From contig CAVSFE010000002.1 of assembly GCA_963727315.1 (NCBI GenBank), positions 407,723-471,722 of the forward strand: a DNA stretch of 64,000 nucleotides, given 5' to 3'. Positions 11,448-47,543 of this stretch are shown here, piece after piece. This DNA comes from an uncultured Chloroflexia bacterium (lineage in GTDB: Bacteria; Chloroflexota; Dehalococcoidia; Dehalococcoidales; RBG-16-60-22). Made by a program: the position numbers and the translations under genes. The notes beneath the pieces are model-generated. The model saw only the letters and a program-made list of their open reading frames with translations, was not told where the DNA came from and did no database searches. How positions within the stretch are numbered: the stretch's first letter is position 1; each line of letters starts with the position of its first letter.

Positions 11448-11524
11448 GGCGCATTCGTCTAGCGGCCTAGGACGCGTCCCTCTCAAGGACGAGATCACGG
11501 GTTCGAATCCCGTATGCGCTACCA
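11448..11524 (+). tRNA. tRNA-Glu (anticodon CUC), CCA encoded
   Basis: Manual cloverleaf: acceptor GGCGCAT/ATGCGCT, D arm GTCT..AGGAC, anticodon stem CGTCC/GGACG with loop CT-CTC-AA, T arm ACGGG-TTCGAAT-CCCGT, discriminator A plus CCA. Confidence 0.9.
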
Positions 11525-19617: not shown

Positions 19618-19935
19618 ACTGCCAACTCCATCTTTTCCATCATCGTACCATATCTAGAAGAGGAAGCCTTGTCGGTGTTAGAATGTCTTGTTTACACGCA
19701 CTACTTTTGGTCGGCGGGTCAGAGTGCTAGCCTCAGGTAACAATGCATCTTTTTGTGCAGGCAAAGATTAACCATTTCGATGAAAAGTGCAATCATACTT
19801 TTTAGCTATTTGTTTAACCTCGCCGTATCATATAAAAAGCCATTTTGTCAACCATAATTACCTTTGAATTCAGACCAGGGTATTTATTATCCCCCCATTT
19901 CAGCCTTTGGAGTGCCAATAGGTTATAATGTGCAT

Positions 19936-20940
19936 ATGGGAAAGTCACCGACTGTGGCCATTATGGGCTGCGGTCCCGGAGGAGCCTACCTATACGCATT
20001 ACTTCGGTACAAAAAGCCTGAGCTAGAAGTCACCATTTTTGACAAAACCCCTCATACTGTCTGTGGCATAAAGGGATGCGCTTGGGGAGCGAGTTGGCCC
20101 CAATTTTCCAAGCTCTCCAAGGAAGTAAATATAGACCCCGATAAGTACGTCCTCGGAAGGCATGATCATCTGCTTATCAACCAGATGAAGCTTAAGGCCG
20201 ATGGGGTTATAATAGACAAACCTTTATTAATCAAGGATCTACTCGGCGGAAAATCTCCGCTTGACCCATCAGATGCTGACTTATCTGCCTTTGAACGAAT
20301 CGTGGATGCCAGCGGTGTAAGTCGAGCTTACTTGTCATCACGGCAGGGGCTGGCTCCGGCAAATGTTATTCAGATGAGAATTACCACTACATCTATATCA
20401 TGCCCTACGGTATTTGCCGACAGAACTGGTGGTTACATATGGCTTTTCCCGCTCGGCAGAGGCGAGGCCCATGTCGGTTCTTTATCTCCACAGGGAATCG
20501 ACATCGCCACTCGAGAATTGGATCGAGTCAGGAAGATCTTAGCTGCTGGTCCAGTTCTGTGTAGTTGTTCTGCAATGATATGCCGTAAGGGGCCAGTTTA
20601 TCCATTTATCGAGGGAAAAGTCTGGGGACTGGGCGAGGCTATCGGCCTGGTGGATCCAATCGCATGTGCTGGGATAGTGCCAGCCATGACCTCAGCTAAG
20701 CTAATGAGCGAGAATTGGGACAATGATCACAGATATGAAAAACAGGTTTGGCGATGCTACTCTTATATGGTCAAAGAGGCAAAAGCGGTAGCCAAAATCG
20801 TCCGAGAAGAAAGGCTTCTTTATAGCGATTTATTACTCCCTCGTCGTGCTTTCAAGACCCTGGGCATTTACCCCAGCTTCCGTCAAATAATGAAGGTAGC
20901 ATCAACAGTTATAAAAATACAGAGCGTTAAAGACGATTAA
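19936..20940 (+). CDS. FAD/NAD(P)-binding oxidoreductase (geranylgeranyl-reductase-like family)
   Basis: The ATG at 19936 gives MGKSPTVAIMGCGPGGAYLYALL (GxGxxG). The C-terminal part has GLGEAIGLVDPIACAGIVPAM. The track ORF starts at a TTG at 19864. Confidence 0.65.
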   Translation: MGKSPTVAIMGCGPGGAYLYALLRYKKPELEVTIFDKTPHTVCGIKGCAWGASWPQFSKLSKEVNIDPDKYVLGRHDHLLINQMKLKADGVIIDKPLLIKDLLGGKSPLDPSDADLSAFERIVDASGVSRAYLSSRQGLAPANVIQMRITTTSISCPTVFADRTGGYIWLFPLGRGEAHVGSLSPQGIDIATRELDRVRKILAAGPVLCSCSAMICRKGPVYPFIEGKVWGLGEAIGLVDPIACAGIVPAMTSAKLMSENWDNDHRYEKQVWRCYSYMVKEAKAVAKIVREERLLYSDLLLPRRAFKTLGIYPSFRQIMKVASTVIKIQSVKDD

Positions 20941-21179
20941 ACCCTACAGCACGAAGCAGGCTAGGGCTCGTGGTTTAGTAAAGATCAACGGATTATTAGC
21001 TGCACAATTAGATGGATTGTGACATCTAATAATTACTATCAATAGCCGCCGTAGTTCGAGTCTAATATGATGGGTATTAGGGAGTCAGGAGATACTGCAC
21101 CCATGAATTTGTGATGTCCTAGCCCGTGATGGTGATTAATCCTGGGTGGAAAACCTCTTAAAGTCCTGCGGCGGCCAGG

Positions 21180-21689
21180 TTGTTACAGGAACTCTACGAG
21201 AGGTTTATCCAGTTTGGCGTATCCCTGTATGCGGCTCACGTACGCGTCTACCAGGCCCTGGCGGCAGATAACGAGGCAGCGGCGCTGGAGTTCCTGGCCG
21301 AAGCCCTGACCATGGCGGCGCCGGAAGGCGTTATCCGCTACTTCGTCGATGAAGGCAAACTGCTTAAACCGCTTCTTGAAAAAGCCTTGGCTCAGGAAAT
21401 TACGCCTGAATTTACCAGACAGCTGCTGGATATCATCGAAGAAGAGGAGCGGCAGAGGCAAGCCAGGAAACGAGCGGCCGCACCCCCACCGCTGCCCGGC
21501 CTCCTCAGCGAACGAGACCTCGAAGTCCTCAGGCCGCTCGCCGACGATATCCCTAACCAGCGCATCGCCGCAAAGCTAAGCGTCAGCCTGGGTACGGTCA
21601 AGACCCATGTCCATCACATCATCGATAAGCTGGAAGTGAAAGACCGCCGCCAGGCGGTCCAACGTGCCAGAGAGCTCAAGCTGCTCTAG
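21180..21689 (+). pseudogene. 3' remnant of a MalT/LuxR-type regulator (only the C-terminal ~170 aa)
   Basis: It aligns with the last ~170 aa of the 876-aa regulator (...PEGVIRYFVDEG... / ...LSERDLEVLRPLADDIPNQRIAAKLSVSLGTVKTHVHHIIDKLEV). The frame is closed by a TAA at 21159-21161, where AT-rich DNA begins. The fragment is visibly GC-rich, like the island flanks. Confidence 0.7.
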
Positions 21690-22860: not shown

Positions 22861-22892
22861 GGGAAGGGGGCCCCTCCGGGGGCTCCCTTCTC
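22861..22892 (+). terminator. GC-rich hairpin followed by a T/A-rich tract
   Basis: GGGAAGGGGGCCCC-TCC-GGGGGCTCCCTTCTC (one mismatch and one bulge), then TTTAAATTT. Confidence 0.35.
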
Positions 22893-23210
22893 TTTAAATT
22901 TAATAAACAGAGGGGCAAGTGGGTAATTGTTTATGGAATTGGTTACAATCACTCATTTTGTTGAGCCTGGTTGCACATTCTAGCGAGTTGTTGGGCAACA
23001 ATCCGATGGATTGTGTAATATCCTGCATTTTCAGAATTGTTAAGTCACTTTTTAGCTGATTGTCGACTAGTATACGTTGTGTTATACTACTGGTAGAGAG
23101 ACCGTCGATAAAGACTCCCCGTTTCCTTTGATGTAATACTCATGCACATAATTATACCCACTCTGAGTTGGCTATAGGCGACGTAATAAATATTCTAAGG
23201 CGTCTATTTC

Positions 23211-23522
23211 ATGAAAAGTAAAATTTGCTCGGCAATTGATTCCAAGAAAGTGATAAGCTTTTACTACAGGGGCGGTATTCGTTTCGTAGAACCATACTGT
23301 TATGGTCTTCATAAAAGTACTGGAGATGAAGTGCTTAGGTGTTATCAAGTCAAAGGTTTTAGTGAATTTGGAGAACCTTTTGGCTGGAAATTTTATCCGG
23401 TGAATGAGATTTCGAAATTGGTGATAACTGATAATAATTTTAGAGGCGACAGGAAAGATTATAACCCCGATGACACTATGATGAAGAAAATAATTTGTAG
23501 AATAGAGGGTGAAAAGCCTTAA
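23211..23522 (+). CDS. hypothetical small protein in a strongly AT-rich patch (possible WYL/SH3-like fold)
   Basis: 103 aa. ...KKVISFYYRGGIRFVEPYCYGLHKSTGDEVLRCYQVKGFSEFGEPFGWKFYPVNEISKL is loosely reminiscent of WYL-type beta-barrel repeats. No confident family assignment. Confidence 0.35.
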   Translation: MKSKICSAIDSKKVISFYYRGGIRFVEPYCYGLHKSTGDEVLRCYQVKGFSEFGEPFGWKFYPVNEISKLVITDNNFRGDRKDYNPDDTMMKKIICRIEGEKP

Positions 23523-23563
23523 AATGGCTTATCATAAGGCCTTAAATTATCAAAAACAGTTGG

Positions 23564-23956
23564 TCACTTCTTTTGCAGGTGCTTGGCCACTATCTTCAGT
23601 AAGTCATTTGGGCTGACTGGCTTATCAATATAGTCTTCGTACTCTACTTCTAAACCGCGACTACGAGGGATTCCGGTCCCCGCTCCCCTTGTTGAATAAC
23701 TGGTCAACATAAGTACCGGAATTTCAGCAAGTTTCGGGTCTTTCTTGAGCTGTTCCGCCGCCGTAAAGCCATTTTCTACCGGCATGATGACATCGAGAAG
23801 TATTAAATCAGGTCTCTCTTCTCTTGCCTTGCGTAAACCTTCGTTACCGTCAACCGCGACTATTACCTCGTAAGGTTTGCTTTCTAGCACGATCTTTGTC
23901 GACTCGACAAAATCAGCATCATCATCAATAAGCAAGATTTTGGGCTTCCTTTTCAC
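23564..23956 (-). CDS. single-domain response regulator (CheY-like receiver)
   Basis: ILLIDDD..., PDLILLDVIMP (phospho-acceptor Asp present), ...LTSY..., DYIDKP. Confidence 0.85.
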   Translation of the reverse strand: MKRKPKILLIDDDADFVESTKIVLESKPYEVIVAVDGNEGLRKAREERPDLILLDVIMPVENGFTAAEQLKKDPKLAEIPVLMLTSYSTRGAGTGIPRSRGLEVEYEDYIDKPVSPNDLLKIVAKHLQKK

Positions 23957-23997
23957 TTAAGATCGCCTCCTTAAATTATCAGATTAACTAGATAATT

Positions 23998-24396
23998 TTA
24001 GGGCTTTTTCTTCTTGATGAGTCTGCCTACCCTTTCCAACAAGACATTGGGAGACATGGGCTTCTCAATATAATCATCCACGTCCAGTTCAAGTCCGGTC
24101 TCCAGTTCATAGCGCCGCCGACTGGCTTCCTCTCTTACCGAGGTAAGAATCAGAATAGGTATATCCTTATACTTGGACCACCTCGGGTCCTGAAGTTCCT
24201 TACATACGGCGAACCCGTCCATTTTAGGCATCATCAGGTCGAGAATCATCAGGTCCGGATTCTCCGCCTTAAGAGTGGCTAACCCCTCTATCCCATCGCG
24301 CGCGGTGGACACTTGATACCCCTGGGATTCAAGAATCATGGTAACGGCGTCGAGAATATCAGGGTCGTCATCAACAACGAGTATCTTGCCAGGCAT
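23998..24396 (-). CDS. single-domain response regulator (CheY-like receiver)
   Basis: ILVVDDDPD, PDLMILDLMMP, ILILTS, DDYIEKP. Confidence 0.85.
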   Translation of the reverse strand: MPGKILVVDDDPDILDAVTMILESQGYQVSTARDGIEGLATLKAENPDLMILDLMMPKMDGFAVCKELQDPRWSKYKDIPILILTSVREEASRRRYELETGLELDVDDYIEKPMSPNVLLERVGRLIKKKKP

Positions 24397-24408
24397 TTTC
24401 GCCTCCTA

Positions 24409-25326
24409 TTATATTACAGGCCTGGGCATAAGTCCAGCCTTTGCTACCATCTCCGGGACGATATCCTCCCAGCCCACCGCCATAATATGAATGCCTTGCA
24501 CTCCGGGTATCTCTTTAAGCTGCTCGATAATTTCCAGGATTATTTTTACCCCTTCATCCTTGGCCTTCTCTGCCTTTTCCATCCTGGTGACGATTTCATC
24601 GGGTAGACTTACTCCGGAAACGTAGTCTCTCATGTAACGGGCCATACCTACCGACCTGATGGGTATGACGCCTGCTAGGATGTGCACCTGCTTGTCCAGG
24701 CCCAGGTCGCAAACCATCTGCATGAACTTGGTGAATTTGGGTACATCATAGACCGCTTGAGTCTGGACAAAGTCTAGTCCGGCTTTGACCTTCTTGGCAA
24801 GCCTTTTCACCCGGAATTCAAATGGGTCGGCGAAGGGATTGGCGGCCGCGCCAATATATATCGGGACTTCCCCGGCTATTTCCTCGCCATTAAGAAATTT
24901 CTTCTCGTCCCGCATCTTCTTCAGCATCTGAATCAGCTGAATGGAGTCGATATCAAAGACACCCTTGGCGGAAGGATGATTACCAAACTTCTGATGGTCA
25001 CCGGAAAGGCAAAGGAAATTGCCTATACCCAGGGCTACAGCGCCCAGAACATCACTCTGGAGTGCCAGCCGGTTCCGGTCTCTAACAACCATCTGCATGA
25101 CCGGTTCGACGCCCACCCCCTTCAGAAGCAGGCAGCCGGCCAGGCTGGACATACGCACAATCGCCGTCTGGTTATCGGTGATATTGACGGCATCACAACA
25201 ATTACGAAGCATCTCGCCCTTCTTCTGTATCACTGCCGCGCTGGTGCCCTTGGGGGGACCTGCCTCGGCGGTGACGGCAAATCTCCCGCTCTCCAGTATT
25301 TTCTCCAGGTTGGTTCCTGCTTTCAT
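24409..25326 (-). CDS. metF: methylenetetrahydrofolate reductase, small MetF type
   Basis: The ATG at 25326 gives MKAGTNLEKILESGRFAVTAEAGPPKG...DAVNITDNQTA...CLSGDH..., which is the MTHFR pattern. It starts 20 nt after the kinase stop. Confidence 0.8.
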   Translation of the reverse strand: MKAGTNLEKILESGRFAVTAEAGPPKGTSAAVIQKKGEMLRNCCDAVNITDNQTAIVRMSSLAGCLLLKGVGVEPVMQMVVRDRNRLALQSDVLGAVALGIGNFLCLSGDHQKFGNHPSAKGVFDIDSIQLIQMLKKMRDEKKFLNGEEIAGEVPIYIGAAANPFADPFEFRVKRLAKKVKAGLDFVQTQAVYDVPKFTKFMQMVCDLGLDKQVHILAGVIPIRSVGMARYMRDYVSGVSLPDEIVTRMEKAEKAKDEGVKIILEIIEQLKEIPGVQGIHIMAVGWEDIVPEMVAKAGLMPRPVI

Positions 25327-25346
25327 TGATTTGCCTCCTCTAAACT

Positions 25347-26780
25347 TCACACCGGTTTGGGTAGTGTGCAAGAAAATTTACATCCGGTGTTGGTTTCAGA
25401 ACAGGGACTCTCAGCCCATATCTTACCACCATGAGCCTCAACAATCCTCTTGGATATCGACAACCCCAGACCTGTCCCCTTGACTTCTACGTTGCTACCG
25501 CGGAAGAAGTCTTCAAAGAGACGCGGCATATCCTCACGGGGAATGCCAATACCGGTATCCATAACCTCAATCAGCAATTCCTTGCCTTGGTCCCGTACCC
25601 TGACGGTTACCGCACCCTCCGGTGTATATCTAATAGCATTATTCACCAGATTGGTTATCACCTGTTGCAGTCGTGGAGCCGAACCTATAATTGGGGGAAT
25701 CACTTCAGGCAACTCCACTTTCAGGTTTATGCCCTTTTCCTCGGCCAGATTACGCTGACCTTCGATGGAATCTTTTAGCACCTGTAGCAGTAAAATTTCC
25801 TTCATCTCCTGGACAATCTGGCCAGTCTCAATGCGTGGAATATCCAGCAAATCACTAATCAAGGTCAGGAGTTCGGTAATACGGTGAGAACTCCGCTCCA
25901 GCATATTCTTTTGCTTCTCAGAAATTTGCCCGGCGAAACCACCCAGCAAGACCCACAGGAAACCCTGAATGGCAGTAAGCGGCGCTTTCAGGTCATGAGC
26001 CGCAATGCCAAGAAAGCGTAAGAACTTCTCCCTTTCCTCTCTCAGTTTGTTTATTTCACTGGAGGCACGCTCCAGTTCACCGGTCTTTTCGGCAAGCAGA
26101 CGCTCACCCAGTGCCACCACCTGCCGCTGTCTCTTTCTCAGCTCCCCGGCAATAGCGGTGGTCACGTAGGTGATACAGTAAAGGAGCAATGCCAGGGTGA
26201 TGAGCCTGGCCACGATATAGCTTCCCTGCCGGTACTGCGTTGGCGAAACGAATCCCTGAAGATTGACATGAGATATCACACCAGCATATTCCAAACCCGC
26301 CATCAATGCCACAAAGGCAATGGCTACCGTGGACAACAGATATACTATCCGGTAGTTAAGGCCGATACTGGCCAGGACGATGTGAAAGACGAAGAAGAAC
26401 ATGAACGGGTTTTCTATCCCCCCGGTGAAATGCAGTATCACGGTCAGGGCAAGCATGTCAAGTAAAATGTGGGTATATGTATATTGCCGGACACGCGGAA
26501 TAACCCGCTGGGGCGGCAATTTCTTCAGTCCCCTGACCTGCTGTGTCAGTATCAGGTTATAAATAGCCATGAAGGCACAGACAATATATACTGGCAGGGT
26601 GGTAAAACCGATTTGAAACGCGTATCTGGCGACGAGGGTGACGATGATAACCCCGAGAATGGCAAACCACCTCATATTGTTAAATACCTTGAGGCGCATC
26701 ACCAGTGTTTCTTCTTCGGGGGTGTGCTCGGTCTCTTCTCCCACCGGGGCTTTATCACTTATGGTATTAATAGTAGTCAA
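25347..26780 (-). CDS. membrane sensor histidine kinase
   Basis: About 6 predicted TM helices, a coiled-coil linker, H-box FLGIAAHDLKAPL, N/G boxes NLVNNAIRYT, DTGIGI and GTGLGLS. TTG start with an AAGGA RBS. Confidence 0.85.
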   Translation of the reverse strand: MTTINTISDKAPVGEETEHTPEEETLVMRLKVFNNMRWFAILGVIIVTLVARYAFQIGFTTLPVYIVCAFMAIYNLILTQQVRGLKKLPPQRVIPRVRQYTYTHILLDMLALTVILHFTGGIENPFMFFFVFHIVLASIGLNYRIVYLLSTVAIAFVALMAGLEYAGVISHVNLQGFVSPTQYRQGSYIVARLITLALLLYCITYVTTAIAGELRKRQRQVVALGERLLAEKTGELERASSEINKLREEREKFLRFLGIAAHDLKAPLTAIQGFLWVLLGGFAGQISEKQKNMLERSSHRITELLTLISDLLDIPRIETGQIVQEMKEILLLQVLKDSIEGQRNLAEEKGINLKVELPEVIPPIIGSAPRLQQVITNLVNNAIRYTPEGAVTVRVRDQGKELLIEVMDTGIGIPREDMPRLFEDFFRGSNVEVKGTGLGLSISKRIVEAHGGKIWAESPCSETNTGCKFSCTLPKPV

Positions 26781-26785
26781 AATAC

Positions 26786-27199
26786 CTATCCTTTGCTTTT
26801 CATGGCTAAGGGTCCCCAGTTTTTTATCTGCTCAGTCATTTCATCGGTGATGGCGAGAAACCTATCGCCCTCCGATGGAGACACCCACTCCAAACGCAAC
26901 CGCCCATCTTCAATGCCCAATTGAGAAAGCACCTTTTTCAACAGGGCGATACGCCGCATGGTCATATAGTTCCCTTCGGAATAATGGCAGTCTCCGGGGG
27001 GGCAACCGAGAACCAGGATGCCGTCGGCACCAGATGTAAACGCCCTCAGAATGAAGTCGGGTTCCACCCGGCCGCTGCACATCACCCTGATAGGGCTGAT
27101 ATTGGCATTGAACTTTATAGGTGAAGCACCGCTGGCTTCGGTAATCCGGTAGGAACACCAGTTACACAGAAAGGCAACGATCTTTGGTTCAAAGCTCAT
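26786..27199 (-). CDS. MvhD-like (methyl-viologen-reducing hydrogenase delta subunit family) iron-sulfur protein, copy 2
   Basis: The ATG at 27199 gives MSFEPKIVAFLCNWCSYRITEASG...VMCSGRVEPDFILRAFTSGADGILVLGCPPGDCHY. The track ORF extends upstream into metV. Confidence 0.75.
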   Translation of the reverse strand: MSFEPKIVAFLCNWCSYRITEASGASPIKFNANISPIRVMCSGRVEPDFILRAFTSGADGILVLGCPPGDCHYSEGNYMTMRRIALLKKVLSQLGIEDGRLRLEWVSPSEGDRFLAITDEMTEQIKNWGPLAMKSKG

Positions 27200-27225
27200 A
27201 CCAATACTCCACTGGAGCGTACCGT

Positions 27226-27900
27226 TTATGTCCCCCCCGATTTCTCTTGAGAGGTTATGCGGCGGGGCCCACCAGCATGAGAGGTGCTCCAATCTCGTAG
27301 CGGCTGGATTTCATCCAGCATTTCCAATTTACCCCGCGCCGACAGGCGGTCAATTATCGCTTGCCAGGCACAAGGTATATCAGGTGATATTTCACACTTC
27401 CCTTTGGCTGACCCGCCACATGGCCCGTTCAGCAAACTCTTGGCACATCTTGTTATGGGACAGATGCCGGCCGTCTTATCGAGAATGCAGTTCCCACAGC
27501 CAGAACACCGCTCTACCCATACGCCCTCCGTCTCTGGCATCCCCATGCACACTGTATCAAGCCCGGGAAGAACCGAGATGGCAGCGAATTTCTCACTCAG
27601 CGCTTGTACTCCTACACCACAACCCAATGACAGTATGGCATCCTTTTCCTTCACCTTATCCCCTATCGCATCGAGAAATTCCCATTCGCACTGACGTTCT
27701 ACAGTATGTTCTGAGAAGACCCGGTTTTTGCCCGATATCCTGTCGGCCATGCGGAGAGATGAAGCGAGAATCCCGACCTCTTTGTCCCCGCCGCTAAAGC
27801 AAATAGCCACACATGTGCCGCAGCCAAGTACCAGAATATTCTGATAACCTTCAATCATTGCCTTGATATTCTCAAAAGGTTTTGCTTTGGCAATAATCAT
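27226..27900 (-). CDS. metV: MetV-like protein (methylene-THF reductase C-terminal-domain / Cys-rich partner of MetF)
   Basis: NILVLGCGTCVAICFSGG...LSLGCGVGVQ...ERCSGCGNCILDKTAGICPITRCAKSLLNGPCGGS...CAW matches the acetogen MetV architecture as I remember it. Confidence 0.7.
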   Translation of the reverse strand: MIIAKAKPFENIKAMIEGYQNILVLGCGTCVAICFSGGDKEVGILASSLRMADRISGKNRVFSEHTVERQCEWEFLDAIGDKVKEKDAILSLGCGVGVQALSEKFAAISVLPGLDTVCMGMPETEGVWVERCSGCGNCILDKTAGICPITRCAKSLLNGPCGGSAKGKCEISPDIPCAWQAIIDRLSARGKLEMLDEIQPLRDWSTSHAGGPRRITSQEKSGGT

Positions 27901-27901
27901 A

Positions 27902-28324
27902 TCAACCCCCCTTTATCGGGCTAGGTCCTAATTTTTTTATTCTCTCGGTCATTTCCCGGGCAACTTCGGAAAATCGTCCACCCTCCGCTGAAGACATGAA
28001 GAACATCTCCAGCCTGTCCTTGCCCAGGCCAATTTTTTCCAGAAGATTTTTAGCGCGCGCTACTCTTTTCTCAGCGCGAAGGTTTCCCTCAACGAAATGG
28101 CAGCCACCTTTGAGACATCCGGCGACAAAAACGCCGTCAGCGCCCTGCTCGAAAGCCTTCAAGATATAGAGAATATCAACCGTGCCTGAACAGGGGAGCT
28201 TAACAATCTTGATATTAGTCGGGTATTGCAGTCGCATCACCCCGGCGAGGTCGGCCGCGGCATAAGCGCAGTAGTGGCAGCTGAAAGCCACAATCTCCGG
28301 TTCAAACTGTTCGGCAGAGGTCAT
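27902..28324 (-). CDS. mvhD: MvhD-like iron-sulfur protein, copy 1
   Basis: FEPEIVAFSCHYCAYAAADLAG...KLPCSGTVDILYILKAFEQGADGVFVAGCLKGGCHF. Confidence 0.8.
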   Translation of the reverse strand: MTSAEQFEPEIVAFSCHYCAYAAADLAGVMRLQYPTNIKIVKLPCSGTVDILYILKAFEQGADGVFVAGCLKGGCHFVEGNLRAEKRVARAKNLLEKIGLGKDRLEMFFMSSAEGGRFSEVAREMTERIKKLGPSPIKGG

Positions 28325-28475
28325 TTTTCTCCTCAGGTAAATCTTAGCTAATCGGCGTCAGCAAAGCCCGGCTCTTGACGATTACCTGCTCTTTCTTATA
28401 ATTTAACAACTCTATAGCTTCTCTGAGGACACTCAGCGGCACAGATACCGCAGCCTCGACACTTGGCCACTTCTA

Positions 28476-30131
28476 TCACGGCCACGCCATCTTCGTTAAT
28501 ATAGGGTACATCATAGGGGCAGACGCGAACACAGGTAAGACAGGCTTTACACTTTTCCGCATCCACCTGACAGACAGCGCCACCGACCTCCAGCTGTTGT
28601 TTCGACAGGATAGTTGTGGCTCGCCCCGCGGCTGCCTGCGCCTGTGTATGGTCTCATCAATGAACTTCGGGGAATGGGCCGTGCCACACAGGTATATCCC
28701 CTCCGAAGCAAAGTCAACCGGCGCCAGTTTGACATGGGCCTCGTGGAAGAAACCTTCCTCAGTCAGCGGCACCTTCAGGATTTTGCTCAGTTCTTCATTA
28801 CCTTCAGCAGGGACCATGGGCGTTGCCAGGACCAGAAAATCAGGTGATAGGACAAGCTCCTCACCCAAGATCGGGTCGAAGGCTATAACTTCGAGCTTGC
28901 TATCGATGGCGTTAACCTTGGGTAATTTATCATCGGAATAGCGAATGAACACTATGCCTTTTTTGCGCGCTTCGGTGTAGAGTTCCTCTTTGAAGCCATA
29001 GGTCCGGACGTCTTTGTAGAGTATATAGATATTTGCCTGCGGACTCATTTCTTTTATCTTCAGGGCATTCTTAATGGCAACGGTACAACAAACCCGACTG
29101 CAATACTGGTAATTCTTGCCGGGAGGCCGGGCACATAGAATCATAGCTATATCTTTAGCCGATGCTATTTCTTGGGGAGACGCCACGATTTTCTCTTCAA
29201 GGTCGCTCAAAGTAAGCACCTTTTCATTCTGTCCCAGCAGGTACTCGCTACCCCGGTATTCTTTGGCTCCCGAGGCGACAATGATTACTCCGTGCTCGAC
29301 CAACCGCTGTTTCTGTCCGTTTTCACTGGCGAGGGTGGTTTTAAAATTACCGACAAAACCATCTGTCTTGACCACAACTGTATCCATAAGGACTTCAATC
29401 AGCGGATTTGCCTTGACTCGCCTTTTTAAGGACTCCAGGAAATCCTGGGGGCTCTCCCCGTTAAGAGACAGGTGAATCTTCCTTGTCCAGCCGCCCAGCT
29501 CCTTTTCCCTTTCCACCAGGTATGTCTTGAACCCCTGCTCGGCCAGATTGAGAGCGGCCGTCATACCGGCAACACCGCCGCCAATGACCAGAGCATCATG
29601 ACTGAGCCCCAGGGTCACCTTGTGCAGTGGCTCAAGCAGGGCAACACGGGCTACGGCCATCCGAATTAATTCTTTAGCTTTCTCGGTGGCCTTTTTAGGT
29701 TCACGCATATGGACCCACGAGCACTGGTCGCGGATATTAGCCATCTCAAAGAGGAAGCGGTTAAGTCCGGCTTCCTTTATGGTCTCCTGGAACAGGGGTT
29801 CATGAGTTCGAGGGGTGCAGGAGGCAACCACCACCCGATTAAGGTTATATTCCTTTATCTTTTCCTTTATCTTCTCCTGGGTATCCTGGGAGCAGGTATA
29901 GAGGTTTCTATCAACAAAGACTACATTTGGCAGTGTCGCGGCATAATCCTTTACCTCCGGGACATTGACGTAACCACCGATATTGATGCCGCAATGGCAA
30001 ACGAAGACGCCAATTCTCGGCGGCTCCTTAGAGACATCTTTTTCCGGGGGATATTCCTTCTCTACCGTCAGAGTGTGGCGTGACGAGGCAAGTAAAGCTG
30101 AAGAATTGGCGGCGGCGGCGCTGGCCTGCAT
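28476..30131 (-). CDS. HdrA-like flavoprotein, C-terminal third of a single large gene (true extent about 28396..32812, with frameshifts near 28645 and 30258)
   Basis: GVFVCHCGINIGGYV...ASCTPRTHE...ALVIGGGVAGMTAALNLAEQG... The last ~55 codons of the track ORF are out of frame. The shifted frame reads QAQAAAGRATTILSKQQLEVGGAVCQVDAEKCKACLTCVRVCPYDVPYINEDGVAVIEVAKCRGCGICAAECPQ, with a stop at 28396-28398. Confidence 0.8.
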   Translation of the reverse strand: MQASAAAANSSALLASSRHTLTVEKEYPPEKDVSKEPPRIGVFVCHCGINIGGYVNVPEVKDYAATLPNVVFVDRNLYTCSQDTQEKIKEKIKEYNLNRVVVASCTPRTHEPLFQETIKEAGLNRFLFEMANIRDQCSWVHMREPKKATEKAKELIRMAVARVALLEPLHKVTLGLSHDALVIGGGVAGMTAALNLAEQGFKTYLVEREKELGGWTRKIHLSLNGESPQDFLESLKRRVKANPLIEVLMDTVVVKTDGFVGNFKTTLASENGQKQRLVEHGVIIVASGAKEYRGSEYLLGQNEKVLTLSDLEEKIVASPQEIASAKDIAMILCARPPGKNYQYCSRVCCTVAIKNALKIKEMSPQANIYILYKDVRTYGFKEELYTEARKKGIVFIRYSDDKLPKVNAIDSKLEVIAFDPILGEELVLSPDFLVLATPMVPAEGNEELSKILKVPLTEEGFFHEAHVKLAPVDFASEGIYLCGTAHSPKFIDETIHRRRQPRGEPQLSCRNNSWRSVALSVRWMRKSVKPVLPVFASAPMMYPILTKMAWP

Positions 30132-30246
30132 TACCGTCTCAGGGATGTCCTTGGGTGCCTGAAAAACGCCGGTGACGAAGATGCCTGGACTTGATGTCTC
30201 GACCGGTGAAAATTCTCCGGTCTGGCAGAACCGGTATTTATTGAGG

Positions 30247-31470
30247 TCAATGCCCAGTCTCTCTGGCCAGTTTTACGCCTTTCGCGGATGGCTGGAATCC
30301 TACCGAAAGAACTACCAGGTCGAATTCCTCGTTCTTTAACGTTCCATCTTCTTCAGCAAACCTGAGAAGTAGATTCCCGGTGGCTTTGACCTCTTCGATA
30401 TTAAATACCCTTGACCTCACAAAGCGGACTTTATGTTCTTGTTGCGCGCGATGGTAATACTGCTCATATCCCTTCCCGAAGGTCCTCATATCCATGAAAA
30501 AGATGGTTGTGTCAATCTCCCGACCGGCATGTTCTTTAGCAATGATAGCCTGTTTGATGGCATAGGTGCAGCAAACTGATGAGCAGTAGCCGGCATTGAT
30601 ACTCTCATCCCTGGAGCCAACACATTGAATCCAGGCAATCTTTTGGATGGGTTTCCTGTCCAAAGGCCTGATTAACTCACCTTTAAAAGGCCCGGAAGCG
30701 CTCAGCATGCGCTCAAACATGATGCTGGTAACGACATTCGGATATTTGCCATAGCCATAGTTGGTCAAGGCCGAAGGCTCATATTCGTCAAGTCCAGGAG
30801 ATAGGATGATAGAGCCGACGTTAATATCTACGTATTCATCCTGCATCTCATGGTTGATGGCGTCGGCTTCGCATCTTTCCTCACACTCCCGGCACTCAAA
30901 GCAGCCCTCTATCTGCGAGGCTAAGCAGCGTCTTGCCTCTCTCCGGGCCGCGGCTATAGAATAGACCTGCTCCACCTCTTTAAAGCCTTTGATTCGTCTC
31001 TCTGGCTTCAGCTCTTTACCTTTCACCCTGTTCTTCGAAGGGAAGCGCTTTTTAAGGGCAACAATTTCATTTTTACTGAGTTCTTGCGGGGCTCGGGTAT
31101 CATCTTTGGAGGTTAAAGGCTCTCCTTTGAGATATTCATCGATGGAACGCGCCGCTTTCTTCCCGGCGGCGATAGCCTCAATAACCATGGCCGGACCGGT
31201 AACCACGTCTCCGCCGGCAAAAATACCGTTAATATTGGTAGCTAAAGTGGCTTCATTGACGGCGATTGTTCCCCGCGCGGTTACTTTCAAGCCATTTTTC
31301 CTGGCATAATCAATATCTGGAGCTTGACCCAGAGCCGGAATAACGGTATCAACATCGATGAAGAATTCAGAGCCTTCAATCGGGACAGGGCGACGACGAC
31401 CGCTGTCATCAGGCTCCCCGAGATTCATCTTAATACACTCGATCCTGGTGACCCTGCCTCCTCTCGGCAA
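30247..31470 (-). CDS. middle fragment of the same gene: end of the GltD/NfnB-like NAD(P)H module plus the HdrA core
   Basis: GRVTRIECIKMNLGEPDDSGRRRP...FAGGDVVTGPAMVIEAIAAGKKAA (GltD-like), then CFECRECEERC, CVGSRD...YCSSVCC (HdrA-like). The start and end are both created by frame changes. Confidence 0.8.
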   Translation of the reverse strand: MPRGGRVTRIECIKMNLGEPDDSGRRRPVPIEGSEFFIDVDTVIPALGQAPDIDYARKNGLKVTARGTIAVNEATLATNINGIFAGGDVVTGPAMVIEAIAAGKKAARSIDEYLKGEPLTSKDDTRAPQELSKNEIVALKKRFPSKNRVKGKELKPERRIKGFKEVEQVYSIAAARREARRCLASQIEGCFECRECEERCEADAINHEMQDEYVDINVGSIILSPGLDEYEPSALTNYGYGKYPNVVTSIMFERMLSASGPFKGELIRPLDRKPIQKIAWIQCVGSRDESINAGYCSSVCCTYAIKQAIIAKEHAGREIDTTIFFMDMRTFGKGYEQYYHRAQQEHKVRFVRSRVFNIEEVKATGNLLLRFAEEDGTLKNEEFDLVVLSVGFQPSAKGVKLARETGH

Positions 31471-32812
31471 TTACCCGGGTGGGGTTAGCCAGAAACATGA
31501 TATCGATGCCTTCTTCCTCGGCGGCCCTGACCTCCTCATCGCTGGCCGGCATCTCCGAACGGGAACGCCGGTAGATGACTTTCACTTCGGCGCCCAATCT
31601 CCTGGCCACGCGGGCGGCATCCATCGCCGCATTACCGCCGCCAATAACTGCCACCCTTTTACCGACATCGACTTTTTCTCCCGAGTTGACTTTTCGCAGA
31701 AATTCGACGGCATGGACGACGCCGGCAGAATCCTCTCCGGGGATACCCAGCCTCAGACTTTGATGGGCGCCTGAGGCAATGAAAATAGCTTGATAGTCCT
31801 GCCTGAGCTGTTCCAGCGTTATCTCTTTGCCTACTTTAACCTTCGTCTTTATGTTTACCCCTAATTTCTCGATATAGCCTATATCCCTGGCGAGTATGTC
31901 CTTGGGGAGTCTATATGCAGGTATTCCGTATCTGAGCATGCCCCCTGGCTCAGGCAAGGCCTCATAAATGGTCACCTCATAACCTTCGAGGGCCAGATCA
32001 TGCGCTGCCGCCAGACCCGCCGGACCACTCCCGATGATAGCCACCTTCTTACCATTCCTGGTTATCTGAGGGACTTCGTAGTTCTCAATATCAATTTGGT
32101 CGGTAACGAATCTTTTTAAAGCACGAGAAGCAACAGGTTCATCAAGCTGCCCGCGATTGCAGGCTTCTTCACAGGGCGCGTAGCAAACCCGACCGCAGAT
32201 GGCTGGTAGAGGATTGGTACTCCTGATCAAGGCATAGGCTTCTTTGAACATTCCCTCGGCAACCAAAGCCGCGTAACCTTGAACATTCATGTGGATGGGG
32301 CAGGCATCCTTACAAGCGGCATGACAGGGTCTTTCTTCTCTTTTATCGATGGCGTATGTCCTGGGTACTGCTTGAAGATAAGGTGTATAAATGGCTTTCC
32401 TGGTTCCCAGCCCTTCGTCAAAGGCACTCGGCATGATAATAGGGCATCCCTCGGCACATACTCCGCAGCCGGTACATTTAGCACCGTCAACGAATCTGGC
32501 CTTTTTCTTAACAGAAACAGTAAAATTCCCGGGCTTACCCCGGACACCAAGGACTTCTGAATATGTTAGAAGGTCGATGTTAAGATGTCTCCCGCACTCC
32601 ACCAGTTTGGGAGAGAGAATACACATAGAACAATCATTGGTGGGTAGAGTTTTGTCAAGCTGAGCCATCACGCCGCCAATGGCGGGGGAATCCTCTACAA
32701 GGTAGACTTTATACCCGGACTCAGCGAGGTCGAGGGCTGATTGAATCCCGCCGACACCCCCACCAACGACAAGTACCGCCCCTATTTTTTCGCTTGCCAC
32801 CGTCTTGTCCAC
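31430..32812 (-). CDS. N-terminal fragment of the same gene: HdrA N-terminus with an inserted GltD-like Fe-S/FAD/NAD(P) module
   Basis: AVLVVGGGVGGIQSALDLAESGYKVYLVE...LPTNDCSMCIL...CTGCGVCAEGCP (HdrA). Then NPLPAICGRVCYAPCEEAC, VAIIGSGPAGLAAAHDLA and VAVIGGGNAAMDAA (GltD/NfnB-like). Confidence 0.8.
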   Translation of the reverse strand: MDKTVASEKIGAVLVVGGGVGGIQSALDLAESGYKVYLVEDSPAIGGVMAQLDKTLPTNDCSMCILSPKLVECGRHLNIDLLTYSEVLGVRGKPGNFTVSVKKKARFVDGAKCTGCGVCAEGCPIIMPSAFDEGLGTRKAIYTPYLQAVPRTYAIDKREERPCHAACKDACPIHMNVQGYAALVAEGMFKEAYALIRSTNPLPAICGRVCYAPCEEACNRGQLDEPVASRALKRFVTDQIDIENYEVPQITRNGKKVAIIGSGPAGLAAAHDLALEGYEVTIYEALPEPGGMLRYGIPAYRLPKDILARDIGYIEKLGVNIKTKVKVGKEITLEQLRQDYQAIFIASGAHQSLRLGIPGEDSAGVVHAVEFLRKVNSGEKVDVGKRVAVIGGGNAAMDAARVARRLGAEVKVIYRRSRSEMPASDEEVRAAEEEGIDIMFLANPTRVIAERRQGHQDRVY

Positions 32813-32865
32813 TTTTCCCCATCCTGATTTCAGCTGGGGGCTATTCTCGATTTTTGCTGAATCTA

Positions 32866-33435
32866 TTATGCTAAAGCCGCTTCTATTGCTTGCACTATAT
32901 CCTTGTTGTCAAAAAGGCTCATGGCAATTGCCCCGGCCGGACAAGCCGCACTACACACGCCGCAGCCGCGGCACGATTCAATAACAAGGTGAACAGTATA
33001 TTTATCATCCTTTGTTTCCAGCTTAAGCGCTTCGAAGGGGCATGTTGATACACAGATACCGCAACCCGAGCATAAGTCTTCATTGATGGACAAAGGAAGA
33101 GTGTATCCTTCTTTGGTCGCCAGGTGTTTCAGGATATCCCAGACAACGGAAAACTTGACTTTCTGCGGGCAGTTTTTCTCGCATAGAAAACACTCAGAAC
33201 AATACCAGATATAAGGGCTACTTAAGACTTTATTTCGCATACCTAGGTTAAGCATCCTGACTATTTTCCTCGGGTCATGCTCGGGGTATATTTCATGAAT
33301 GGGACAGGCAGCGGTGCAGGTTCCACAGGTAAAGCAAGCAGTAGCGTCATTAATAATATCGCCAGCGGCTACCTCAAACTTAAAATTACGGTCAAGTTCC
33401 GATACTCTAACTGGCTTAGGTGCTGAAATCTCCAT
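32866..33435 (-). CDS. HdrC-like 4Fe-4S dicluster protein with an extra ferredoxin domain
   Basis: CFTCGTCTAACP...CSECFLCEKNCP (HdrC-like spacing), then CSGCGICVSTCP...CRGCGVCSAACP. Confidence 0.7.
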   Translation of the reverse strand: MEISAPKPVRVSELDRNFKFEVAAGDIINDATACFTCGTCTAACPIHEIYPEHDPRKIVRMLNLGMRNKVLSSPYIWYCSECFLCEKNCPQKVKFSVVWDILKHLATKEGYTLPLSINEDLCSGCGICVSTCPFEALKLETKDDKYTVHLVIESCRGCGVCSAACPAGAIAMSLFDNKDIVQAIEAALA

Positions 33436-33488
33436 TCAATCGCTTTCTTTCCGCATAATTGTCATCACGTCACAACTTGGTAATGAAC

Positions 33489-33517
33489 ACTTTAACTAAT
33501 TGCATTTTTCTTGTCAA
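33489..33517 (-). promoter_or_regulatory. putative sigma70-type promoter of the hdr/met operon
   Basis: On the minus strand: TTGACA - 17 nt - TAAAGT, about 50 nt upstream of the ATG at 33435. Confidence 0.4.
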
Positions 33518-33845
33518 GTTTAAACATCGGCCTTACTTTTGCGCAACTTCTCTCTTCTATTGAAGGAAATTCCATCTCTCCTACCAAGGTAAACGCTGGC
33601 CGGGGTAATAATCGTCCATTTTGTTCAACTTACAGGAACATTCGCTTGTTTTGTGTAGTGTCTGAGCCATCGCTTATTGGAGAATGGGTCCCGGCAGTTG
33701 TGGTTACACTGAAATCCACAACCATACAGTGGCTTTGTATTTGCGGATGGTATCCGTTTTTACTTTGGGTAGCTTATGCCACACGACCTACTCTATCAAC
33801 AAGGCCAGCAACTACTTATTCTTAGGGTTGATTACTTAGTAAGAA

Positions 33846-38620: not shown

Positions 38621-39280
38621 TTAAGTCGACTGGTCGCCCCCGGAAAAGCCATAGCCCACGCCCCTCACGCCGAATATCTTAAAGCCGGACAGCTTGCGGC
38701 GCAGGCGCCGTACATAGTAATGGAGATTGTCCAGGCTGATGTCTTTCCCTCCCCACACCTCAGTAATAAGCTGCGGGTAGTCAACGAGCCTGCCCTCGTT
38801 GGAGAGCAGACAGTTACCGAGACGGCACTCGATAGGGCTGAGGCCTTCCGTGCCGGCCTCCGGGCGGATATGGCTCTCGACCCCAACCCCGGTGCCCCCG
38901 GGAGGGTCGTCATCGCCCCGGTGTTTAAGCAGGGAATTCACCCTGGCCACCACCTCCCGACCGCTCGGCGGACTAATGATGCAGGCATCCACCCCGAGCT
39001 CAAGCATCTCCACCACCTCCTCGCGGCGGCCGATGGCAATCAGAGGCAAATAGCTCGCCTGGCGCAGGCGCAGACAGGCATCCTCCCCGTTCACCGACGG
39101 CAGGTCGGTGCTGGCAATGACCACGTCGGGATGCAGGCCGTATATCTTTTTCAAGCCGTCAGCAGCGTCGGCCGCTTCGACCACCTCATAACCCGCCTCC
39201 CGCAAAGCCTCGACGGCCTCAACCGAAGACGCCCTGTCCTTCTCCACAATGAGAACCACGGCTTTTTTCATGGCAAACAC
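38621..39280 (-). CDS. OmpR/PhoB-type regulator with a degenerate receiver domain
   Basis: C-terminal winged helix: LSPIECRLGNCLL...YYVRRLRRKL...RGVGYGF. The receiver positions read EKD (not DD), VVIASTDLP (Ser where the phospho-acceptor Asp aligns) and ISPP (no KPF Lys). Confidence 0.7.
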   Translation of the reverse strand: MFAMKKAVVLIVEKDRASSVEAVEALREAGYEVVEAADAADGLKKIYGLHPDVVIASTDLPSVNGEDACLRLRQASYLPLIAIGRREEVVEMLELGVDACIISPPSGREVVARVNSLLKHRGDDDPPGGTGVGVESHIRPEAGTEGLSPIECRLGNCLLSNEGRLVDYPQLITEVWGGKDISLDNLHYYVRRLRRKLSGFKIFGVRGVGYGFSGGDQST

Positions 39281-39466: not shown

Positions 39467-40159
39467 TCAGACTTCCGGCCTGACGAACCGATAGCCTACT
39501 CCCCGTTCGCTGAGGAGCATGCGGGGATTCTCCGGGTCCGGCTCGAGCTTGGAACGGAGACGGTAAATATATTTCTTGACAAAGGTATGGTCGTCAGTAT
39601 ACTCCGAGCCCCAGACCCTTTCCAGCAGCAGGCTGTGGGGTAAGACCCGCCCCTCATTCTGGGCCAGTTCCGTCAGCAGGCTGTACTCGTGGGGGGTAAG
39701 CCGGACAGGCCGGCCGGCCAGCGAGACATGGCGCGTGCTGAAATTAATAGTCAGCTCACCGGCGGAAAACATATGTTCGTGCTTGTAGCCGAGCCCGTGA
39801 GCGCGGCGCAACAACGCGGTCACCCTGGCGACCAGCTCGATGGGACTGAACGGCCTGTGGATATAGTCGTCGGCCCCCGCCTCCAATACCATCGCCCGGT
39901 CAATATCGCTTTCTCCCGCAATCAGGACGAGCAGAGGGACATCAAAGAACCGGCGAATCTCGCCGATAACGCCGGTGATATTTATTTCCGGCAAAGACGA
40001 CGAAATCAAGATAAGGTCCGGCAGCTCGGCCTCAATCACCTTCACCGACTGGACCCAACGGGACGAAGACACGGTAACGACCTCCGGGTACCGCACCGCC
40101 AGACAGAAAGCGATGTTATTGACGGCCTGCTGGTCGTCCTCAATGATGAGGACTTTCAT
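39467..40159 (-). CDS. OmpR/PhoB-type regulator with a degenerate receiver domain
   Basis: Winged helix: LTPHEYSLLTELAQNEG...YIYRLRSKLE...RGVGYRF. The receiver reads LILISSSLP (Ser at the acceptor position), VLIAG (no Thr/Ser) and IHRPF (Arg for Lys). Confidence 0.75.
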   Translation of the reverse strand: MKVLIIEDDQQAVNNIAFCLAVRYPEVVTVSSSRWVQSVKVIEAELPDLILISSSLPEINITGVIGEIRRFFDVPLLVLIAGESDIDRAMVLEAGADDYIHRPFSPIELVARVTALLRRAHGLGYKHEHMFSAGELTINFSTRHVSLAGRPVRLTPHEYSLLTELAQNEGRVLPHSLLLERVWGSEYTDDHTFVKKYIYRLRSKLEPDPENPRMLLSERGVGYRFVRPEV

Positions 40160-42572: not shown

Positions 42573-43004
42573 CTAAATATTGCGGGCGGTCTCCATCCCA
42601 TGGCTGATGGCATCGGCAATCAGGAGCGGCTCTTTACAATCGCCGATAGCGAAGAGTTCAGGCACCTTGCCCTTCAGGCCTTCGAACAACGTCGGGTCGG
42701 GAAGCAAAGGAAGGGCGGGGATAATGGTATCGGCGGGAATGGTCTGCTTTTTACCGTCTTTATCAATTATCGTCAGCCCTTTATCAGTTATTGCCACATA
42801 CTCTTTAACGCCGGCGATGAGGGTCACGCCTTTTTTCCGGAACCAGTCGAAAAGATAAGCCTGGATAACGTCGACCATCCCCTGCCCGAGGGTCGGGGAC
42901 TTCTCCACGATAGTGACCCGCCGGCCACGCTTGACGAGGAACTCGCCGAGCTCACAACCGTGCAGGCTGCCCCCGATAATGATGACTCTTTTGCCAATTG
43001 GCAA
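42573..43004 (-). CDS. FadH-like (2,4-dienoyl-CoA reductase / OYE-fused) flavoenzyme, C-terminal fragment; same gene as 43016..44659, with a frameshift near 43080
   Basis: GKRVIIIGGSLHGCELGEFL...AIGDC... is the second nucleotide-binding domain. The shifted frame upstream reads LSIVRLKFYLRFIGPKTLRWLTRFYLPIGKRV and joins directly. Confidence 0.75.
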   Translation of the reverse strand: MPIGKRVIIIGGSLHGCELGEFLVKRGRRVTIVEKSPTLGQGMVDVIQAYLFDWFRKKGVTLIAGVKEYVAITDKGLTIIDKDGKKQTIPADTIIPALPLLPDPTLFEGLKGKVPELFAIGDCKEPLLIADAISHGMETARNI

Positions 43005-43015
43005 ATAAAATCTGG

Positions 43016-47069: not shown

Positions 47070-47543
47070 TTATAGCTTTTTTCTAAGGACAAGTTTATCG
47101 TCGCCGGGCGTGTAAAAATCGGGGATGCAGGCCACGGTCTCGTAGCCGCGGCGCTCGTAGAATTGGCGGGTATTTTCGTAGAGCGGCGTCGAGGACGTCT
47201 CGATAATAGCCAGTCTGCCCCCGGCCTTCTTAATCGCCGTTTCCGCCGCTTCCGAAAGCATTTTCCCGATACCATGCCCGCGCTTCGCCCGGTCGACCGC
47301 CACCCAGTAGATATCCCAGGTGCCCACGGTGCAGGGCGTCTCGCCGTAGCAAATATACCCCGCGATTTTGCCGTCTTCCTCGGCGATAAGGGTGAAATAA
47401 CCGGCCCGGGGGTCGTTAAGATAGCTGTCAATGACCTCCTCCGCCACCACTACCTCGAAAGATTTAAATTCGGGCGTATTGCGGAGTATTCGTATCAGCG
47501 CCGATTTGTCCCCGGCGACCATGGGGCGGATCCTGACGGTCAT
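47070..47543 (-). CDS. GNAT family N-acetyltransferase
   Basis: MTVRIRPMVAGD...WVAVDRAKRGHGIGKMLSEAAE (R/Q-x-x-G-x-G/A acetyl-CoA motif). Confidence 0.8.
   Translation of the reverse strand: MTVRIRPMVAGDKSALIRILRNTPEFKSFEVVVAEEVIDSYLNDPRAGYFTLIAEEDGKIAGYICYGETPCTVGTWDIYWVAVDRAKRGHGIGKMLSEAAETAIKKAGGRLAIIETSSTPLYENTRQFYERRGYETVACIPDFYTPGDDKLVLRKKL

Follow-up and report, generated by a model that had tools for sequence, protein, structure and literature searches.

What kind of enzyme is encoded, and how might it be controlled, where the genes of a methylene-tetrahydrofolate (methylene-THF) reductase are interleaved with those of a membrane histidine kinase and two receivers? The question is raised by positions 23564–33517 of a stretch of 64,000 nucleotides (nt) from an uncultured Chloroflexia bacterium placed within the Dehalococcoidales (assembly GCA_963727315.1, contig CAVSFE010000002.1), the whole of this stretch being referred to here as the window. 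Ten tightly packed genes were found on the minus strand of this region, and Pfam and NCBIfam profile searches upheld the gene order and domain calls that had been proposed earlier from the letters alone (the initial annotation). This includes the embedding of the kinase and two output-less receivers among the metV/mvhD and metF genes, in the order mvhD2-kinase-metF-RRa-RRb. On balance it is thought probable that the locus represents one Dehalococcoidales operon for an Hdr-coupled methylene-THF reductase with its own redox-sensing module, a view that takes in electron bifurcation, quinone sensing and a probably intact hdrA gene. The best reading of the sequence is a variant of the type IV (Moorella-like) reductase lacking HdrB, which would draw its electrons from NAD(P)H and be under the control of a redox sensor of the quinone pool. 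The features of the region are listed below in their order along the minus strand, followed by a small convergent open reading frame (ORF), with lengths in amino acids (aa).

33489–33517, minus strand: promoter-like site (TTGACA, 17 nt, TAAAGT) from a consensus scan, 53 nt 5' of the start of the HdrC-like gene
32866–33435, minus strand: HdrC-like polyferredoxin, 189 aa, with Fer4_17/Fer4_8 at residues 31–93 and Fer4_9 at residues 122–170
28345–32812, minus strand: HdrA with an NfnB/GltD insert, HdrL-type, 1488 aa after correction, from NCBIfam and PDB matches
27902–28324, minus strand: first MvhD (MvhD 1), [2Fe-2S] electron-transfer subunit, 140 aa (PF02662, E 3e-50; VhuD model, E 3e-53)
27226–27900, minus strand: MetV, 224 aa (PF12225, E 2.6e-35)
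26786–27199, minus strand: second MvhD (MvhD 2), 137 aa (PF02662, E 1.7e-47)
25347–26780, minus strand: membrane histidine kinase, 477 aa, with HisKA (H262), HATPase_c and a six-helix sensor domain
24409–25326, minus strand: MetF, catalytic subunit, 305 aa from the homology-supported start (PF02219, E 1.2e-35, full-length)
23998–24396, minus strand: receiver RRa, 132 aa (PF00072, E 5e-27)
23564–23956, minus strand: receiver RRb, 130 aa (NCBIfam receiver models; PF00072 in an ortholog)
23211–23522, plus strand: small ORF, 103 aa, convergent on RRb and inside the block shared with related genomes, with no match in Pfam

With homology-supported starts, the spacers of the operon measure 53, 20, 1, 26, 5, 20, 12 and 41 nt from 5' to 3', lengths which support the view that they would be too short to hold intergenic promoters. 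A gap of about 70 nt had been described in front of the first mvhD gene, which was wrong because the last stretch of hdrA had been read in the wrong frame; the corrected spacer is 20 nt, compared with 19 nt in L003 (related loci and contigs are given here by L numbers). Internal promoters or terminators that would split the cluster, as considered in the initial annotation, were not found in the spacers, and the scan matches did not rise above shuffled controls. Both hexamers of the promoter-like site are identical in L003 and L008, with similarity decaying directly 5' of the site, and the hairpin 3' of RRb is weak (z −1.2). From this layout, co-transcription of the whole cluster is plausible. 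The MetF protein is 93–96% identical to the MetF proteins of L003 and L002, and its gene is separated from metV by mvhD2 and the kinase gene. No second MetF or MetV was detected in the window by tblastn, and MetV has no solved relative in the PDB.

On the side of electron input, the HdrA protein matched the NCBIfam model for HdrA2 (E 9e-287) together with GltD/NAD(P)-binding models, these searches being run on the intact ortholog of L003, and its best PDB match was 5odc (HdrA, E 3e-199). An NfnB/GltD-like module (PDB 5jca and 4ylf, matched over residues 162–564) lies at residues 162–569 with HdrA matches flanking it on both sides, which supports the NAD(P)H-binding module proposed for this protein in the initial annotation. 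The protein also has a second HdrA-like unit and C-terminal ferredoxin domains. The same architecture, at about 1480–1495 aa, is common in Dehalococcoidia and also occurs in Aerophobetes and Thermodesulfobacteriota. Residues 32–111 of the HdrC-like protein, which is 85% identical to its L003 ortholog, match the first 80 of the 144 positions of the HdrC model TIGR03290 (E 8e-22, below the cut-off), while the remainder is a 2x[4Fe-4S] ferredoxin domain.

The absence of a CCG-domain HdrB, also claimed earlier, holds for the whole window. No HdrB/CCG protein (PF02754) was detected in its 64 kb by tblastn with a related HdrB, a hidden Markov model (HMM) built from 15 Chloroflexota HdrB sequences gave a best E value of 1.1 against its six-frame ORFs, and a regular expression for the CCG motif found no match in any of the six frames. 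Among related loci, hdrC-hdrB-hdrA2 lies about 4 kb downstream in L002, hdrC-hdrB stands directly 5' of the giant hdrA in L019, and in Anaerolineae loci hdrC-hdrB follows a second metVF pair.

The hdrA gene as deposited is split over three reading frames and forms no single ORF. When it was compared, by tblastn and at the DNA level, with the L003 ortholog, which is intact at 1488 aa, four insertions or deletions (indels) of 1 nt were located, supported in part by L087, whose kinase is 91% identical and which is the closest relative with enough sequence:

31462, minus strand: indel 1, extra base, relative to L003
30266, minus strand: indel 2, extra base, relative to L003 and L087
28647–28648, minus strand: indel 3, base missing, relative to L003 and L087
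28424–28426 (about 28425), minus strand: indel 4, extra base, relative to L003, L087 and the short-read contig L001

Removal of the four indels gives 1488 codons with zero stops, which is the length of the ortholog. Thus, of the giant HdrA/GltD fusion of the initial annotation, the NfnB/GltD insert stands and the single open frame does not, four frameshifts having been overlooked. The inserted bases at 31462, 30266 and 28425 share purine-rich contexts (GAG[A]GGAGG, TGG[C]CAGAGAG and CCT[C]AGAGAAG, respectively), and a base-calling error that recurs at some sequence or methylation motif might be behind this similarity. Selenocysteine or another programmed recoding was also considered as the cause of the split and rejected, as the pieces lie in different frames, the 1-nt indels are absent from the orthologs and the four contexts differ.

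It is likely that the indels are errors of a long-read assembly, and the enzyme is probably intact in the organism. Assembly error is preferred because the orthologs are intact, because the short-read contig L001 lacks indel 4 and because at least three other genes of the window are split. The orthologs of hdrA are unbroken in L003 and L008, and the L087 frame is open across three of the indel sites; over the 7.4 kb aligned between the window and L087, the sole coding indels are three of those in hdrA. The Logan contig L001 equals the window over 330 nt minus indel 4, the one indel of the four checked in this manner; with the corrected HdrA as query no identical fragments were returned. The other split genes are two of CoA-transferase family III (1128–2332, profile positions 1–213 and 223–366; 4540–5770, profile positions 4–248 and 279–366) and an OYE plus Pyr_redox_2 oxidoreductase (42576–44659, Pyr_redox_2 positions 1–122 and 143–287), and a MalT/LuxR-type regulator (19864–21689), found as fragments only, is probably split too. 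As a group these genes suggest either indel errors throughout the assembly or a large number of pseudogenes.

The alternative that hdrA is a genuine and very recent pseudogene, the operon then working only as MetVF (type II-like) with another electron donor, or decaying, is considered unlikely. It would account for four frameshifts within 4.4 kb, none in a long homopolymer and denser than in the rest of the window, it would be in line with the loss of the mvhGA hydrogenase genes from the operon in the same lineage, and independent reads were compared for only one of the four indels. However, the corrected frame has no stops and exactly the length of the ortholog, its amino acid identity to the orthologs (92%) is as high as that of the intact neighbouring genes, the short-read contig that allowed one indel to be tested lacks it while matching the window in all else, and at least three genes of the window unrelated to hdrA are split alike, as expected of a long-read assembly. 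With assembly error as the preferred explanation, the practical lesson is that the indels of long-read genome assemblies can go unnoticed in a plausible 'giant fusion' gene.

The presence of two mvhD genes had been noted as a duplication. Two genes are indeed present, the products being about 41–46% identical, but the second copy is best read as the orphaned delta subunit of a lost Mvh-type (MvhGA) hydrogenase and not as a locus-specific duplication. This follows from the sister genomes L003 and L008, in which mvhD2 overlaps the start of a [NiFe] small-subunit gene that is followed by the large-subunit gene and then the kinase gene. Positions 7428–9987 of L003 (2.56 kb, mvhG/mvhA) are replaced by 14 nt in the window, a clean deletion, and L087 and L002 also have no hydrogenase genes at that position. 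The [NiFe] small and large subunits span 7439–9864 in L003, the same in L008, and 6993–9453 in L078, and in the Anaerolineae loci, too, true [NiFe] small- and large-subunit genes fill the interval from metV to the kinase gene. The hydrogenase genes in the sister genomes and in Anaerolineae suggest an H2-fed MvhAGD-HdrA-MetVF complex.

Co-transcription of a two-component system with a reductase of this type had been described as unusual, which a synteny scan did not support, the same cassette being present in dozens of Chloroflexota species. Relatives of the kinase were collected with one genome per GTDB species (430 stretches), and neighbourhoods were mapped by tblastn in the best 80. Hundreds of close homologs exist, and the top 120 matches in Chloroflexota metagenome bins are all at least 70% identical. 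Among the best 80 of the 430 stretches, kinase identity was 57–89% in Dehalococcoidales and other Dehalococcoidia, 45–52% in Anaerolineae and 48% in Acetothermia. The kinase gene was followed directly by metF in 58 of 70 assessable loci and directly by the receivers in 11 of the 70, two receivers came after the kinase in 47 of 54, and metV lay directly 5' of the kinase gene in 43 of 74, with [NiFe] hydrogenase genes between the two in a further 16 of these 74. In the loci L029, L055 and L064, metF is not next to the kinase gene, and the kinase and its two receivers neighbour metVF or a Mvh-type hydrogenase cluster. Upstream, the same set of 80 showed a NuoG/NuoE/NuoF-like input module in 21 loci, a giant HdrA(-GltD) with MvhD in 17 and a NuoF-GltD fusion in one. 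The unit MetV-kinase-MetF-receiver-receiver is conserved as a cassette across Dehalococcoidia, Anaerolineae and Acetothermia, with differing electron-input modules upstream of it. A literature search returned no analysis of this arrangement beyond a passing mention for the single-cell genome DscP3, in which 'phoBR flank metF_1' (Sewell et al., 2017; PMC5736913).

The kinase of the cassette is, by sequence comparison, a distant homolog of RegB/PrrB/ActS, predicted to be RegB-type in both descent and working; it is not classed as a RegB ortholog. Its membrane domain (residues 1–242) matches two of 18,950 NCBIfam models, those for ActS/PrrB/RegB (E 4e-18) and RegB (E 1e-15), with the Pfam PilS-like 6TM model falling below threshold on the kinase. 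An end-to-end alignment was obtained with a Sinorhizobium meliloti kinase annotated ActS/PrrB/RegB (BLASTP E 1e-19, about 22% identity, hhalign probability 99.3%). In this alignment TGGIENPF, which contains the GGIENPF of residues 120–126, corresponds to TGGLANPF of ActS, and Arg37-Trp38 corresponds to the Arg-Trp of ActS helix 1; both TGGxxNPF and the helix-1 Arg-Trp are invariant in 72 kinase orthologs. The motif falls between predicted helices 3 (90–119) and 4 (125–140) of an AlphaFold model of low confidence (predicted local distance difference test, pLDDT, 64; predicted template modelling score, pTM, 0.42), from which the helix layout alone was taken. The ubiquinone site of RegB is made up of GGXXNPF, R31 and Q38, and oxidised quinone at this site inhibits the kinase (PMC3000548).

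That the kinase and receivers are instead a generic PhoR/PhoB-type or unrelated two-component system, lying next to metF with no functional tie, is regarded as highly improbable. The homologous genes were labelled 'phoBR' by Sewell et al. (PMC5736913), and of the many family models matched by the catalytic core, all below their cut-offs, the best are those for PnpS/PhoR. These matches are limited to the generic core (residues about 241–474), however, and the membrane domain matches RegB-family models only, with no PAS domain in the kinase and no PhoB DNA-binding domain in the receivers. Furthermore, the input modules change from Dehalococcoidales to Anaerolineae and Acetothermia but the order kinase-MetF-receiver-receiver does not, and loci with a non-adjacent metF (L029, L055, L064) still have the trio beside metVF or a Mvh-type hydrogenase. 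The PhoR/PhoB assignment was rejected on these grounds. It should also be noted that two tandem OmpR-type regulators (receiver plus Trans_reg_C; 38621–39280 and 39467–40159, minus strand) lie 5–6 kb from the promoter side of the operon. No histidine kinase was seen near them among the neighbouring ORFs scanned, and a link between these regulators and the operon kinase is possible.

Both receivers retain the residues of phosphorylation, namely D9/D10, acceptor D53, T85 and K113 in RRa and D11–13, acceptor D55, T84 and K112 in RRb, and neither has an output domain. The acceptor Asp is invariant in 63 orthologs of RRa and 66 of RRb. In CheY-like receivers, the region corresponding to residues 87–99 of RRa is the usual partner-binding face. 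In RRa these residues form the motif VRE.A.RRRYELE, invariant in the 63 orthologs, which come from Dehalococcoidia, Anaerolineae and Acetothermia. In most loci the kinase and MetF are both less conserved than RRa, whose identity within Dehalococcoidia is 75–98% compared with 57–89% for the kinase.

A working scheme for the locus may be proposed from these features. NAD(P)H would enter through the NfnB/GltD-like module of the double HdrA subunit, and in the sister genomes H2 would enter too, through MvhAG and the second MvhD. The HdrA flavin would bifurcate the electrons, the high-potential electron passing by way of the iron-sulphur (Fe-S) carriers (MvhD, the HdrC-like protein and MetV) to the flavin of MetF and on to methylene-THF, such that MetVF would take the place that HdrB and the heterodisulfide have in the Hdr of methanogens. 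The low-potential electron would pass by way of the ferredoxin domains to ferredoxin, and the reverse direction may also be possible. The kinase is predicted to read the redox state of the membrane quinone pool and to phosphorylate both CheY-like receivers, which lack a DNA-binding domain and may act through protein partners, either the enzyme complex or another regulator; one of the receivers may alternatively serve as a phosphate sink.

A tentative extension of this scheme, which is held to be rather doubtful, is that kinase and receivers provide dedicated post-translational control of the bifurcating reductase and are not a transcriptional switch. Phosphorylated receivers would then attach to the MetF/MetV/HdrA complex, or would anchor this complex at the membrane by linking it to the quinone-binding kinase. 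The position of metF inside the kinase-receiver unit, the conservation of RRa with its charged RRRYELE and the absence of an output domain are compatible with such control. If true, it would be a Chloroflexota-wide way to tie an exergonic reductase step to membrane energetics.

Several observations weigh against the proposed operon for a bifurcating, quinone-controlled reductase. Ferredoxin reduction was never demonstrated for the Moorella enzyme (PMC8760232). The equivalent of RegB Gln38 is Val44 in the kinase (RegB numbering being mapped through the motif description in PMC3000548), and there is no Cys between H262 and the N-box: the only ActS Cys between the phosphorylated His and the ATPase domain, equated to RegB C265 by position, aligns with Ile301. 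Against NF033792 the kinase scored 109 bits, the cut-off being 350. The receivers are 22–26% identical to the ActR receiver and have no helix-turn-helix, so the partners of the kinase are not RegA-like. Promoter-like and terminator-like matches do occur inside the cluster, none of them in a spacer and no more of them than in shuffled controls. Finally, the four indels that cluster in one gene, within 4.4 kb, are more than the window-wide rate of split genes predicts.

The energy coupling of methylene-THF reductase has been an open problem since 1977, and for the Hdr-type enzyme a second acceptor of electrons has yet to be identified (PMC8760232). The related loci form a natural series in which the same core is combined with a NuoEFG-like or an HdrA-NfnB/MvhD input; in loci with the second of these inputs, HdrB may be present or absent, and so may a [NiFe] hydrogenase. 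The form that lacks HdrB hints that MetVF can by itself serve as the high-potential arm of an Hdr-type bifurcation. The conservation of the RegB-like sensor, in turn, suggests that Chloroflexota abundant in the subsurface match their one-carbon (C1) reduction to how oxidised or reduced the membrane quinone pool is. The components were known and the arrangement had been noted once; what is new is an HdrB-less form with an HdrL-type subunit and a lost hydrogenase, in a little-studied cassette. The linkage of sensor and enzyme and the swappable input modules merit experiments, with the caution that the most striking gene is damaged in this record.

The initial annotation further described the whole unit as apparently acquired horizontally, which was not borne out. 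Similarity to L002, L003, L007 and L008 by blastn spans exactly 23180–33522, at 85–91% nucleotide identity, and the flanks are unrelated in each genome. The small convergent ORF at 23211–23522 shares in this, with 85% amino acid identity by tblastn and the same position in all four relatives. That the block was carried in as cargo of a recently acquired genomic island is judged quite improbable. Its sharp borders and unrelated flanks would fit such cargo, as would its guanine-plus-cytosine (GC) content of 0.50, against 0.53–0.56 in the outer parts of the window, and a tRNA-Glu (CTC) gene at 11448–11524 on the plus strand, where GC drops from about 0.56 to about 0.46. Yet the GC of the block is also below that of comparable flank in three of the four relatives, no mobility gene (integrase, transposase or other) was seen among most ORFs of at least 150 aa at 10–23 kb (the part next to the tRNA gene included) and 34–37.5 kb, a survey that left ORFs below 150 aa and 38–44 kb unchecked, and the presence of the block in related Dehalococcoidales, at 88–90% nucleotide identity, with a kinase identity that falls smoothly with taxonomic distance is expected of vertical descent with local rearrangement. 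The block looks more like a conserved operon in rearranged surroundings, and recent horizontal acquisition is not demonstrated. Just outside the block, a GC-rich hairpin at 22861–22892 (plus strand; 14 pairs, 10 of them G-C) with a T-rich tail lies 3' of a SnoaL-like gene and is the best terminator-like site of the scanned region.

Two further gene groups of the window were recorded. Four genes in a row at 47070–50757 on the minus strand encode a lysine-2,3-aminomutase-like radical SAM protein (49507–50757), two ATP-grasp proteins of the D-Ala-D-Ala-ligase type (47464–48543 and 48528–49529) and a GNAT acetyltransferase (47070–47543); the pair of aminomutase and acetyltransferase is reminiscent of AblA/AblB for N-epsilon-acetyl-beta-lysine. 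At 5782–9189 (minus strand), glutamate-mutase-type genes (MutL-like, 5782–7131; Met_asp_mut_E, 7639–9189) adjoin three CoA-transferase genes and an enoyl-CoA hydratase gene, and may possibly represent a cluster of methylaspartate or glutamate fermentation type.

Among known systems, the Moorella thermoacetica type IV reductase MetFV-HdrCBA-MvhD (Mock et al., 2014, as summarised in PMC8760232) is the one to which the locus had initially been likened, and the likeness is sustained. Both have MetF, MetV, MvhD and an NAD(P)H-oxidising HdrA-type flavoprotein in one cluster, together with an Fe-S protein that in the window matches HdrC over its N-terminal half, and electron bifurcation is the proposed mechanism. 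Unlike the Moorella system as summarised there, the window has no HdrB/CCG protein, and its HdrC-like protein is truncated and fused to a ferredoxin domain. Its HdrA, 1488 aa long after correction, is a double unit into which an NfnB/GltD module is inserted. It also has an additional MvhD, and the genes of a kinase and two receivers lie in among metV and metF. Of the types distinguished by Oppinger et al. (PMC8760232), type IV is the nearest to the locus, which departs from it in having no HdrB. In the Acetobacterium woodii type III reductase RnfC2-MetVF (PMC8760232) there is no embedded kinase, and the window differs from it in its Hdr-type input; most Dehalococcoidales relatives, by contrast, are more like type III, their cassette being preceded by a NuoF/NuoE/NuoG-like NADH module, a functional counterpart of RnfC2.

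The hdrABC-mvhD-metVF cluster of the marine Chloroflexi single cell DscP3 and its relatives (PMC5736913) is likewise from Chloroflexota with a two-component system flanking metF, and the Anaerolineae loci L056–L082 very probably carry this same cassette. It keeps an HdrB, fused to HdrC, and a second metVF pair, in which it differs from the window. Sewell et al., who called the regulators 'phoBR', analysed neither them nor the conservation of the arrangement.

The HdrL-MvhD proteins of Desulfobacterium autotrophicum (Strittmatter et al., 2009; PMC2702500) resemble the input module in being a large soluble HdrA/glutamate-synthase-type fusion with an NADH-binding site, followed directly by mvhD. 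The hallmark of HdrL, as compared through its published description, is found in the window, where HdrA and a GltD/NfnB-like module share one polypeptide in the corrected frame and mvhD follows 20 nt on. The genes linked to HdrL are dsr, fdh and others, not metVF and a kinase, and HdrL1 and HdrL3 contain selenocysteine (PMC2702500), whereas hdrA of the window has no in-frame UGA. With the MvhADG-HdrABC complex of methanogens (PDB 5odc, 8rvu) the locus shares HdrA, its best structural relative, and the MvhD and HdrC-like modules, and in the sister genomes [NiFe] hydrogenase genes of the MvhG/MvhA type are part of the operon as well. It differs in having MetVF in place of HdrB as terminal acceptor module, in the deletion of the hydrogenase genes from the window and in the NfnB-like insert.

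The kinase, lastly, differs from RegB/PrrB/ActS (Wu and Bauer, 2010; PMC3000548) in its low identity (about 22%, below the family cut-off), in the absence of equivalents of Gln38 and Cys265 and in its partners, two stand-alone receivers in place of the DNA-binding RegA; in an anaerobic Chloroflexota host, the ligand, if there is one, would be menaquinone and not ubiquinone. It shares with that family the six-helix membrane domain, GGxxNPF between predicted helices 3 and 4 and, by alignment to ActS, the Arg-Trp of helix 1. The Rhodobacter RegB system controls carbon fixation and hydrogen utilisation, among others (PMC3000548), and the kinase gene of the window accompanies those of a C1-fixation reductase and, among relatives, of a hydrogenase as well.

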